IMG/VR virus record: IMGVR_UViG_2537562173_000012
Length of the DNA stretch: 12,009 nucleotides
Source of the DNA: a virus
Taxonomy: Duplodnaviria; Heunggongvirae; Uroviricota; Caudoviricetes
Strand: one strand, 5' to 3'
The first letter of the stretch is position 1. Each line of letters opens with the position of its first letter. The position numbers and the translations under genes were made by a program. This document shows, in pieces, positions 455 through 11,583 of the stretch. Under the pieces are notes generated by a model that had not been told where the DNA came from, ran no database searches, and worked only from the letters and a program-made list of their open reading frames with translations.

Positions 455-1831
455 TCATACGTCCGCCCCTTGTGCATATCGTCTGCCACGCGCAGCAGGC
501 GCATTTGATGCTGTGCAAATCTGTCTGGCTTCATCCTGGTCACATGCAACAAAGTGTCCGTTGCAGAACCGCTGGTAAACCGTACCAAGTGAGCCAAAAC
601 GGTTTTTCGTCACAATGATTTCAGCAAATGGCGCGGCGCTACTGTTCTCGTCATATACCGCTTCCCGATAGAGCATGATGATTGAGTCTGCGTCCTGTTC
701 AATGCTTCCTGAATCACGCAAATCTGCGTTTGTCGGGCGTTTGTTTGGTCGCTTCTCAACATCGCGTGAAAGCTGACTTAGGGAGATAACAGGCGTTTTC
801 AGGTCTTTCGCCATCGCCTTAAGGCTTCCTGAGATGTGGGCAATTGCGAGGTCGTTGCGATCTGCTTTCGGCTTCTCAATCAGGCCAAGATAATCCGCCA
901 TGATGAGTGACAGGTTTGGATTTTCCTGTTTGTGTCGTTCTGCGATTGAGCGTATTTCTTCGACCGATAACCGCGAGGCATCGACTACCCATACATCCAA
1001 ATCTGCAAGCTGACTCATGCCGTTAGCAACACGCGCCCAGCCTTCGTCATCCATCGATGCAGGATTTCGCAGTACGCTAACCGACATCCTCCCGGCGTTG
1101 GCAATGCTTCGCTCTGCAATCTGCAATGCGCTCATTTCCATTGAGAAAATCAATACCCCGCGCCGGACGTCAGAACCAGGAATAACGCGGCTTGCAACGC
1201 CTTCGGCAATCTTCAGCGCCAGCTCGGTTTTCCCCATACCAGGACGAGCAGCGATTATCACCAGGTCTTCTGCGTTCATCCCTCCGGTGATGGCATCAAG
1301 TTCTTCGATTCCGGTCTTCAGGGTATCGGACTCTTCTCCGTTCCTCAGACGCCTGTCAAGCGTGTCAGTGTAGTCAGTAATGATTTCCCCTAACCGTACA
1401 GGTTTAACCTCGTCACGGGGCTTTCTGATGGCTGAAAGACGCTTTACAAGCTCATCCATCGCCTGACTCGATGCGTCGATGGTTCCGCTCTGAATTGGTT
1501 CACGCATTTCATCCATGATTTCCAGCACCAGACGGCGGTGATAGTTATCCGCGACCATTCCGGCATATCCCTTCAGGTTTGCGGCACTCGGGCAGTTTTT
1601 GCTGGTCATCAGGATTGCGGTGAAATGCTCCTCTCCGCACGCCTCGGCAACCATCAGCGCGTCGATTAGGTTTCTGTTTCTCGCCTGCTTGCGAATAACC
1701 TCGAAGGCTTTCCGGTAGAGCGGAATTGAAAACGCTTCCGGCTCCAGCGTTGCAAGAACGTCACTGGCGGTTGGAGTTAATCCACCAATCAGCAGGCCAC
1801 CGATAACGCTCGCTTCGATATCCTGTCTCAT
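455..1831 (-). CDS. DnaB-family replicative DNA helicase (phage P22 gene 12-like)
   Basis: 458-aa ORF with a Walker A-like GMGKT motif and overall DnaB-like C-terminal ATPase layout. Start ATG overlaps the stop of the upstream O-like gene (ATGA). Same length as the P22 gp12 helicase as I remember it. Confidence 0.9.
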
Positions 1832-2658
1832 GCAATCCCCCTGTCTGCAAACTTCCCTTCCCGAACTCCCGTTAACGAGTCTTCTCTCAGCAGGTAATCA
1901 AAATCAGCCGTCCAGCCCGTGTCGTTGTCTCCGAAGTAAAACGGCTTGGCCTGATGCACAAACGCCCTGACATACGCTCTGAAACCGTCCACATTTGGCG
2001 TTTTCAGTTGTGGGATGATTTTCTTCAGGCGGCGTTTGCGCTTCTCGTTGACCGCAACAGCGTGTGGCAGTCTGTCACCGACTTCGGTGTTGTAGGCGTT
2101 CAGGAAGGATTCATAGTCGATTCGTTCTGCCTTGCGACGTTCAGGTTTAACCTGCCCATCGCCGCCCCCGTTAGGGGGTAAGGGGGTATTTGTATTTATT
2201 GTCTTTTGTATATTGTCTTTTGTGTTTGACTGATTCGGTAAATTGCTTTTTACCGATTTGGTGAAGGTTTGTTTTACCGAATTGGTAAATGTTTTACCGA
2301 ATCCGTTAACTTTCGTTTTCCACTCGGAAATGTTTGTATTCATACCAACTTGACGCCCCACCTGAATGAGAACTCCCATTCTGATAAGCTCGTTTTTGGC
2401 GGTAGAGCATTTGGTTGGTGCCATGCCAGTGAGTTCAGCGAACTGTTCGTTTCCGATCCAATCTATTTTTTTGTTGTAACCGTATGTCTTGCGCCACACA
2501 GCCATAACAATCAGTAACTGATGTGCAGTAAGCCCAGAAAGCATGGCGGCTTCTAACAGTGTGTTTGCAGTCCGAGTGTAGCCATCTTCGAGTTCTGCCA
2601 CGCGATGCTCCACGACCTCCAGTTGAGGCCTGTAATCAGCTAACTTAACGACGCCCAT
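1828..2658 (-). CDS. Replication initiator, lambda O / P22 gp18-like
   Basis: 276-aa ORF with AGGAG SD 6 nt before the ATG at 2656-2658. N-terminal region resembles lambda O (DGYTR..N.LLEA motif). The central linker is encoded by the iteron repeats, and a repeat-encoded [15 protein letters not shown] is visible in the protein. Confidence 0.85.
2173..2300. repeat. Origin of replication: iterons embedded in the O-like gene
   Basis: Tandem AGGGGGTA x2 (2173-2188), TATTGTCTTTTGT x2 (about 2197-2223), and three TTTTACCGA copies (2248-2256, 2272-2280, 2292-2300) interleaved with inverted TCGGTAAA / TTGGTAAA copies. This is the classic lambdoid ori arrangement inside the initiator gene. Confidence 0.7.
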
Positions 2659-2806
2659 GTTTCACTCCTGCTTTTGCTAGTCTGTAAACACCAACAAGGC
2701 GCTCTGCGAACGCCCTGTTATTTGCTGCGGCTACCACTAATCCCTCAGGTGAATCAGGGTGTCGAATCTCTTCTTTTTCCTGGTATTTCTTACGACGTTT
2801 TGTCAT
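2645..2806 (-). CDS. Hypothetical small basic protein between cII and the O-like gene
   Basis: 53-aa ORF ([53 protein letters not shown]) not in the ORF track because it is under 60 aa. AGGAG SD 5 nt before the ATG at 2804-2806; its 3' end overlaps the O-like start by 14 nt. Confidence 0.4.
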   Translation of the reverse strand: MTKRRKKYQEKEEIRHPDSPEGLVVAAANNRAFAERLVGVYRLAKAGVKHGRR

Positions 2807-2838
2807 AATGACTCCTGTGGATTGATCCAGTAATTCCC

Positions 2839-3135
2839 TCAGAATTGCATATCAATTTGCTCAGAATCCTCGGTGGCAGCCGGGGATTTTTTCTTTGTGA
2901 TTCCATCCAATGCATACTTAAAAGCCCTGCTAATCGGACTGATGTCTGATGCCATTCCGAAAGCACACAAGACCGAAGCAATAAATCTCCAGTCCGTTCT
3001 GCTTATCTTCGATTCATGACAGCCAATCATCTTTGCCAGACCGCGCTGGGTAAGCGTTGACAGGTTGATGAGTAAATCAGTTTCTGCGCGATCAATTTCT
3101 CGCTGTGTTGGCTTGCTGTAACTTGCTTGTGTCAT
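2839..3135 (-). CDS. cII: CII-like transcriptional activator
   Basis: 98-aa ORF with a helix-turn-helix region and a C-terminus KKSPAATEDSEQIDMQF that parallels lambda CII (RPAATERSEQIQMEF from memory). Sits immediately downstream of cro as in lambda, but the sequence is clearly diverged from lambda CII. Confidence 0.85.
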   Translation of the reverse strand: MTQASYSKPTQREIDRAETDLLINLSTLTQRGLAKMIGCHESKISRTDWRFIASVLCAFGMASDISPISRAFKYALDGITKKKSPAATEDSEQIDMQF

Positions 3136-11226: not shown

Positions 11227-11511
11227 GTGGCTAACCTGCAACTTGCCGTTAAAGGTGAATACTTCGATGCCATGATTCGCGGAGAGAAAACGGAAGAGTA
11301 TCGCCTGTGTAATGACTACTGGAATAAGCGAATTATGTTCCGCGAGTATGACCGCCTGATTATCACAAAGGGATATCCGAAGCGCGACGATTCCAGCCGC
11401 AGAATTGACGTCCCGTATGACGGATATGAAATCAAGACAATCACACATCCGCACTTCGGCGATAAACCGGTAAAGGTGTTCGCTATAAAGGTGAATATCG
11501 ACAATGAATGA
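11227..11511 (+). CDS. Hypothetical protein, possibly ASCH/PUA-like
   Basis: GTG start with an AGGAGG SD 6 nt upstream; 94 aa. The N-terminal pattern L.LAVKGEYFDAMIRGEKTEEYR resembles ASCH-domain openings. The functional call is weak. Confidence 0.5.
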   Translation: MANLQLAVKGEYFDAMIRGEKTEEYRLCNDYWNKRIMFREYDRLIITKGYPKRDDSSRRIDVPYDGYEIKTITHPHFGDKPVKVFAIKVNIDNE

Positions 11512-11583
11512 TAATCCTCGCACTCGCGGGGATTTCTTTTATCTGAACTCGCTACGGCGGGTTTTGTTTTATGGAGATGATAA

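Follow-up and report, generated by a model that had tools for sequence, protein, structure and literature searches.

What is the role of an open reading frame (ORF) of only 53 codons which lies between the cII-like gene and the O-like replication initiator gene of a lambdoid phage? We have studied this question in the IMG/VR virus record IMGVR_UViG_2537562173_000012 (Caudoviricetes), a stretch of DNA of 12,009 nucleotides (nt) which we will call the window. The ORF codes for the protein known as gp53 in phage HK97, and the comparison of related loci indicates that it is a genuine protein gene under purifying selection. Our preferred reading is that gp53 is a real early gene of the replication module, an accessory factor of those modules which encode a helicase, with its translation coupled to that of O. 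Judged from the sequences, this reading appears to us evenly balanced between being right and wrong.

The gene is found in the replication module of very common prophages of Enterobacterales, which are medically relevant: several Stx-converting O157:H7 phages carry it. It has been catalogued as 'hypothetical' since 2000. If it were needed for helicase-type replication, it would fill a gap in the description of helicase loading by P22- and HK97-type modules and it would offer a handle on the induction of Stx prophages. The value of the present check is that the frame is certainly coding, that its start is the start of lambda O, that a promoter and a hairpin overlap it and that it tracks the helicase type.

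2806→2645 (stop included), minus strand: gp53-family coding sequence, 53 amino acids (aa), from the ORF list and the sequence

Read from the sequence, the start codon ATG occupies positions 2806-2804 and the stop codon TAA positions 2647-2645. A sequence-only reading of the window had reported a basic 53-aa ORF at 2645-2806, between cII and the O-like gene. It is present there, on the minus strand, which that reading did not give.

Identity and conservation of the gene

The protein of the window is identical to HK97 gp53 (100% in tblastn). The region from cII to O has 98.3% DNA identity with HK97, the best of 316 phage records matched with megablast, and the HK97 record annotates the ORF as gene 53, 'Gp53' (AAF31131.1). 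PHROG 1331 ('unknown function') is matched over residues 1-53 with E=1.4e-37. The position also agrees with membership of this family: in the window plus 257 loci a cII-like gene precedes gp53 and an O-like initiator follows, its start overlapped by the gp53 stop, and the same layout is found in HK97, HK629, Stx2 phage 1717 and ES18. With tblastn there are 97 phage records of the ORF, and in 61 the identity is ≥99%; among the records are Stx-converting phages, HK75, mEp234, epsilon34 and ES18. Its equivalents are Sf6 gene 42, epsilon34 gene 49 and ES18 gp58, for which the record reads 'function unknown; similar to phage HK97 gene 53'; the record of Stx2 phage 1717 ties its copy to Sf6 gene 42. 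The region is matched in 1,349 of 5,426 complete E. coli genomes, in 561 over ≥80% of the query, and the exact protein is found on at least 1,000 contigs. RefSeq labels it 'hypothetical protein' in the E. coli records among the matches listed. It is therefore not an unannotated ORF, as had been claimed from the sequence: public records carry the identical ORF under the name HK97 gp53, and most entries for phages and for E. coli in RefSeq call it 'hypothetical protein'. We are dealing with the already known, uncharacterised HK97 gp53 / PHROG 1331, and the copy in the window adds nothing to the catalogue. The layout cII-oop-'orf'-O-P has also been described, with the remark that the orf is lacking in lambda and that one ATG position opens lambda O, P22 orf48 or the homologue of HK97 gp53 (Hayes et al. 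2012, PMC3349717).

Related loci keep the frame intact in 261 of 262 cases. The exception is a metagenomic viral contig (L176:1501-2490) in which gp53 and the O-like protein are joined in frame by a deletion of 1 nt into a product of 329 aa; the fusion may be natural or an assembly error. All 17 loci of different genera (among them Edwardsiella, Trabulsiella, Yokenella, Enterobacter, Citrobacter, Chimaeribacter, Serratia, Rahnella and Brenneria) keep the ATG, a sequence similar to a Shine-Dalgarno (SD) site and a frame of 51–55 codons. Among the six frames only that of gp53 is open in 46/46 diverse relatives, and the other five have stops in most of them. The antisense ORF at 2674-2808 (plus strand) was rejected as a real gene for this reason.

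The substitutions have the pattern of a coding sequence. The median pairwise ratio of nonsynonymous to synonymous changes (dN/dS) is 0.16. Mean pairwise differences at codon positions 1/2/3 are 0.24/0.16/0.52, and column entropies over 111 distinct DNAs are 0.49/0.33/1.09. Many codons have no change in their first or second position, with third positions close to saturation. Differences of length in the protein alignment are gaps of whole codons, for example an insertion of two residues in some members. Two segments are nearly invariant, the central PDSP(E/D)GLVV-AA and the motif N-x-x-FAER-(L/F)-(V/I)-G, and the N-terminus is the least conserved part. A comparison of synonymous and nonsynonymous change had been proposed as a check of the ORF; the intact frame, the low dN/dS and the variation at third positions all speak for the gene. 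This pattern of selection indicates that the sequence of the peptide matters, beyond the mere act of translation. Length alone would say little here, as the first 6 kb of the window contain 74 ORFs of ≥30 aa; it is conservation that places the 53-codon ORF above this background.

The gene belongs to the early-right operon, whose order, on the minus strand throughout, is Cro, cII-like, 53-codon ORF, O-like and DnaB-like helicase. Its neighbours are:

3474-3274, minus strand: Cro, a gene of the early-right operon in the window
2839..3135, minus strand: cII-like activator gene (Pfam Phage_CII, E=5.1e-34; ORF list)
1828..2658, minus strand: O-like replication initiator, 276 aa (Pfam Phage_rep_O, E=1.1e-36; TIGR01610; PHROG 345)
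455..1831, minus strand: phage-encoded DnaB-like replicative helicase, 458 aa (Pfam DnaB_C, E=9.6e-78)

Signals at both ends of the gene and a hairpin inside it

The following features overlap the gene or touch its ends:

2812..2816, minus strand: SD AGGAG of gp53, positional homologue of the lambda O ribosome-binding site (sequence, alignments, PMC3349717)
2781..2809, plus strand: leftward p_o-like promoter, with -35 TGGTAT at 2781-2786, a 17-bp spacer and an extended -10 TGT-CATAAT at 2801-2809
2817..2893, plus strand: oop-like antisense RNA, from alignment to lambda oop (38675→38599); the HK629 record annotates oop equivalently
2645..2669, minus strand: gp53/O junction, with the O-like SD AGGAG at 2669-2665, the O-like ATG at 2658-2656 and the gp53 TAA at 2647-2645; the overlap is 14 nt
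2693..2719, minus strand: mRNA hairpin H1, inside gp53, codons N30-V38

The start of gp53 has a good SD, as the sequence-only reading stated: AGGAG is separated from the ATG by the five nt TCATT (2811-2807), and the ATG stands 32 nt from the stop of the cII-like gene. It is also true that lambda has no gene here, yet the SD, the spacer and ATGACAAA are the translation start of lambda O itself. The similarity to lambda ends after base 8 of the ORF. In alignments with lambda, P22 and ES18 the block ACTGGATC(A/T)ATC(C/A)ACAGGAGT(C/A)ATTATG(A/C)CAAA is identical or nearly so, and the sequences diverge directly after it. We have also considered gp53 as a fragment or pseudogene of lambda O and rejected it: DNA identity stops after ATGACAAA and the 53-aa protein has no match to Phage_rep_O. 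A decaying remnant of O is further disfavoured because gp53 is under purifying selection.

The same stretch carries the p_o-like promoter on the opposite strand. It overlies codons 1-9 of gp53: the -35 element lies in codons 7-9 and the -10 element contains the complement of the start codon. In the record of P22 the oop promoter is marked at the corresponding place. A leftward sigma-70-like match is found at a fixed position in 45/46 diverse relatives, with a mean score of 8.6 compared with 6.2±1.7 in shuffled sequences, and it is near consensus in the types from Serratia, Rahnella and Brenneria. A scan for strict consensus promoters does not call p_o; its assignment combines homology, the annotation in P22 and a relaxed scan anchored at this position. 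At alignment columns 9-11 (codons 8-10 of the window) the third positions have an unusually low entropy, because these codons are dual-coded with the oop promoter. The SD and part of the basic N-terminus are inherited from the junction and are therefore not independent evidence of function. The N-terminus rich in lysine and arginine is indeed basic, as had been noticed, and as an argument for a function it loses weight, being in part dual-coded with this promoter.

The oop-like RNA begins 11 nt upstream of the gp53 ATG and covers the 3' end of cII; its terminator hairpin is at 2863-2890 on the plus strand, where the scan calls a terminator-like site. The 5' end of this RNA abuts the SD of gp53. 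Pairing with oop, or occupancy of its promoter, could affect the translation of gp53 and O.

At the other end of the gene the overlap of 14 nt with the O-like start, reported from the sequence, is confirmed, the stop of gp53 falling 11 nt within the O-like gene. Such an overlap of stop and start is an architecture of translational coupling and is kept in all relatives: in every one examined, the initiator begins at an ATG placed 11-14 nt ahead of the gp53 stop. This ATG is preceded at 6-9 nt by GGAG or GGGG, within the codons for A-G-V. The Gly codon in this SD is GGA or GGG in every junction variant printed; its third-position entropy is 1.00, which we read as two states, A and G. This restriction fits selection for the SD of O. 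In 46 diverse segments of 240 nt, RNAalifold did not find any conserved structure hiding the SD of O. Coupling of gp53 and O translation is a reasonable inference from this architecture.

H1 is the only consensus structure given by RNAalifold in this set of segments. Its conserved core, as folded, is a stem of 7 bp with a loop of 3 nt at 2698-2714, about 55 nt ahead of the start of O. The first base of codon 32 pairs with the third base of codon 36 (A32.1/R36.3), and over 69 distinct sequences this pair is CG in 21, GC in 19, GU in 17, UG in 7, UA in 1 and unpaired in 4. The nonsynonymous changes Ala→Pro/Ser at codon 32 are matched by the synonymous change CGC/CGT→CGG at codon 36. The covariation score is 0.31, compared with 0.22 in shuffled alignments (reached by 0/500) and 0.03-0.11 in slid controls; by parsimony the root of this pair is ambiguous and there are only two clear double changes on single branches. 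H1 is more stable than its synonymous recodings in 44/46 sequences, whereas a control region of the same gene is so in 11/46. The frequent G·U pairs indicate that H1 belongs to the sense RNA and is not a DNA palindrome, and a palindromic DNA operator is rejected for the same reason. It was also rejected as an intrinsic terminator, with a T-run which is too weak and no call in the terminator scan.

The Rfam scan of the whole window gave no match for H1. It gave only a weak RsmY-like match at 11404-11535 (plus strand) with 19.7 bits against a gathering threshold of 57 and E=0.28, most likely due to chance; this region ends in a good terminator-like hairpin. The unrelated P22 orf48 has a stable hairpin 40-60 nt before the start of gene 18. 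A second hairpin, H2 (TTACAGGCCTCAACTGGAGGTCGTGG), is found in the minus-strand mRNA at 2610-2635, about codons 8-17 of the O-like gene and just past its start. It shows apparent compensatory variants in relatives (CCTC/GAGG, CGCC/GGCG, CATCT/AGATG, GGCC/GGCC) and is more stable than synonymous recodings in 41/46. H2 coincides with a mosaic boundary in O and is common to P22 gene 18.

Association with helicase-encoding modules and possible roles

We have surveyed 119 viral contigs which share a 27-nt start pattern, whatever follows it (loci L265-L383, e.g. L266, L283, L285, L293, L336). They fall into the following groups; the remaining contigs are cut at the contig end, have no gene in third position or have one which matches no reference.

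31 contigs: lambda O directly after the start, then lambda P
1 contig: O directly after the start, then a DnaC-like loader
2 contigs: a 214-aa ORF after the start, then O, then a DnaC-like loader
25 contigs: gp53 after the start, then an O-like gene, then a DnaB-like helicase or a primase-helicase
18 contigs: P22 orf48 after the start, then an O-like gene, then a helicase

A small ORF, either gp53 or orf48, is found in 43/43 of the modules which encode a helicase and in 0/32 of the modules with lambda P or a DnaC loader and no inserted gene. The gp53 loci themselves give a similar result: 194 of the 262 have a downstream gene which can be classified, and it is DnaB-like in 193, gp61-like in 1 and lambda P or DnaC-like in 0, which makes 194/194 with a helicase behind gp53. 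The ES18-like initiator is instructive, with residues 17-155 which are 93.5% identical to lambda O: it still has gp53 ahead and a primase-helicase behind. This case indicates that the small ORF tracks the helicase side and not the origin-binding domain. A replication role is plausible, as gp53 is found only with helicase-encoding modules in these samples.

The gene behaves as a cassette, uncoupled from the O type and from the cII type. Identical gp53 precedes at least four clusters of O-like proteins with <70% identity, which have in common only their first ten residues; the mobile unit is thus gp53 plus the first ten or so codons of O. The O-like gene of the window has repeated TTTACCGA(A/T)T(T/C)GGT(A/G)AA-like units at about 2236-2310, seen in the raw sequence, which are presumably the origin iterons of its initiator. 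In two survey contigs (L302:8757-9401, also L338) the slot of gp53 is occupied by a 214-aa ORF, followed by an O-like gene and then by a DnaC-like loader; the letters of this ORF suggest to us a possible GIY-YIG/T5orf172-like protein. The slot therefore accepts other inserts.

The protein is basic, with 14 K+R and 6 D+E, a net charge of +8 and an isoelectric point of 10.7. AlphaFold2 with the family alignment predicts helices at 21-29 and 31-46, with residues 1-20 charged and unstructured and a moderate confidence (pLDDT 69). An exhaustive profile search in 1.84 billion representatives found only 24 small clusters, and among these representatives there was neither a fusion to a larger protein nor a distant relative. 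All named homologues from the protein search are from Enterobacterales. Two loci carry other labels, L004 (a metagenome-assembled genome, 'Bacillota bacterium', 100% protein identity) and L007 ('Chryseobacterium sp. 18061', 83%). They are gp53 loci of the enterobacterial lambdoid type and their labels probably reflect contamination or mis-binning. The lambda CIII inhibitor of FtsH, of about 54 aa and with an amphipathic helix, is alike in size and helix; Pfam includes a CIII model, and gp53 did not match it in the scan at E≤1.

In our preferred reading gp53 would be translated from the pR early-right transcript, and its translation would be coupled to that of the initiator. The product, of roughly 6 kDa, would have a charged and disordered N-terminus of 20 residues followed by two helices. 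Acting in trans, it would serve replication modules of the helicase type as an accessory factor, for example by helping the initiator to recruit or load the phage helicase, or by tuning the output of the initiator. Its target would probably be a partner common to all these phages, not one particular O protein. A wider form of the reading is that gp53 and, independently, the unrelated DUF2740/orf48 would be the missing cofactor of those lambdoid modules which bring their own helicase of superfamily 4: a basic protein of about 6 kDa, kept by coupling in a fixed ratio with the initiator, which would take part of the adaptor role of lambda P or DnaC-like proteins. H1 might then set the ratio of gp53 to the initiator. 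From the arrangement of the genes we consider this wider form quite unlikely.

Several points weigh against an accessory role in replication. A protein of 53 aa is very small for a helicase loader. It does not co-evolve with the body of the initiator. It accompanies two different helicase families, which is awkward for a specific protein-protein adaptor. As the contigs are interrelated, common descent or linkage inside two old lineages of modules could also produce the association with the helicase, and an internal exchange of the ori-binding domain can account for ES18. Lambda, like the lambda/P22 hybrids with the whole module swapped, shows that the slot is not needed everywhere. O can probably also initiate on its own from its strong conserved SD, so that the coupling is perhaps partial. 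The scans of the 53-aa protein did not match any model in Pfam at E≤1, including those for helix-turn-helix (HTH), ribbon-helix-helix (RHH), Arc and CopG proteins, nor any in NCBIfam; PADLOC at E≤1 gave 0 families, with no component of defence or counter-defence. We found no functional study of gp53 in the literature, where PMC3349717 is the sole direct mention found of gp53 and of the oop-'orf'-O layout.

Among the other explanations, a protein directed at the host, for anti-defence or host takeover, could sit in a permissive slot without any role in replication. The mosaic behaviour of the cassette, independent of the O and cII types, would agree with it, as would the unrelated genes found in the same slot (orf48 and the 214-aa ORF of L302) and the narrow taxonomic range. 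However gp53 has neither a promoter nor a terminator of its own and its overlap with the initiator gene is strict; none of the loader-type modules in the samples carries it, which is unexpected for a generic slot, and neither PADLOC nor any other search gave a match. We consider this explanation unlikely.

The R/K-rich N-terminus might instead bind H1, so that gp53 would gate its own translation and that of the coupled initiator. The net charge of +8, the covarying hairpin which is specific for the sense strand and lies 55 nt upstream of the O start, and the hairpin of P22 orf48 at a similar distance from the gene 18 start are all in agreement with such an RNA-binding autoregulator. It is nevertheless very unlikely: gp53 has no similarity to any RNA-binding family, its N-terminus is less conserved than the rest and shares bases with the promoter, H1 is unlike known operator hairpins and has no Rfam match, and the reading is entirely inferential.

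The sequence-only reading had proposed a regulator of replication initiation or a small DNA-binding protein, and an Arc-like RHH or an HTH protein at the origin or at a promoter could be imagined. A small dimeric DNA binder could have this size, this basic charge and two such predicted helices, and the gene adjoins that of the initiator. The proposal did not find a domain or fold in its favour in Pfam, NCBIfam, PDB sequences or Foldseek: the profile search in PDB gave a single chance match (E=7.8), and the search of the AlphaFold2 model against PDB and BFVD gave no meaningful match, a weak test of the fold with a pLDDT of 69. One and the same gp53 is found beside initiators whose origins and iterons differ, so that it cannot recognise ori-specific DNA. 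Such a regulator is highly unlikely; like the RNA-binding and host-directed roles, it is unsupported.

The ORF could also be a pure leader or spacer, in which only translation matters, either by bringing ribosomes to the O start or by keeping O at a distance from the oop promoter. The conserved overlap of stop and start, the start site inherited from lambda O and the filling of the same slot, with the same kind of overlap, by the unrelated P22 orf48 of similar size and charge would all be expected from it. The amino acids of gp53 are however strongly conserved across genera, and the P22 orf48 (DUF2740) alignment likewise has conserved columns, six of them invariant and with a mean column identity of 79%; a pure leader is thus scarcely credible. 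That there is no gene at all, the frame being incidental to the conservation of the oop promoter, the hairpin and the O ribosome-binding site, is practically excluded: these three elements overlap the ORF and some synonymous sites are constrained, but the frame stays open while the other five are stopped, indels are in frame and the three-base periodicity persists outside the overlapping elements. Both the leader and the non-coding explanations are contradicted by the pattern of selection.

Comparison with known systems

HK97 is the closest system. It has the same protein, the same order (cII, gp53, O-like, helicase), the same length of 162 nt and the same overlap. Only the flanking mosaic differs: the body of the O-like gene diverges beyond about 76 nt into O.

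P22 has the shared start block and, as in the window, it opens a small ORF. This is orf48 (DUF2740, PF10872), which occupies the same slot, with the conserved start region, the overlap with the oop promoter and the stop over the initiator start. It has 48 aa and a similar positive charge (counted from the sequence), it is found only with helicase-type modules and it has an internal mRNA hairpin. In spite of this likeness the two proteins have no detectable homology: the profile-profile probability is 0.7% and concerns only the first 11 residues, which are those dual-coded with the promoter. Membership of gp53 in DUF2740 was accordingly rejected, with no match to PF10872 at E≤1 and hhalign probabilities of 0.05% against the single sequence and 0.7% against the family alignment. 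RefSeq calls P22 orf48 a 'tail protein' (L104:1850-1996; NC_002371.2 32349-32495), while its NCBI homologues are the DUF2740 family. The label does not fit a position in the replication module and is probably an error of annotation transfer.

In translationally coupled gene pairs, too, the first gene stops a few bases past the ATG of the second and contains the SD of the second within its coding sequence, as is the case in the window; here the strong conserved SD of the downstream gene makes independent initiation possible as well.

Lambda has the same spacing of 32 nt from cII to the start, the same SD, spacer and ATGACAAA, and an oop-like RNA with its terminator upstream. The difference lies in what follows: in lambda this start opens O directly, whereas in the window it opens a gene of 53 codons, and O starts anew 148 nt downstream with an SD of its own.

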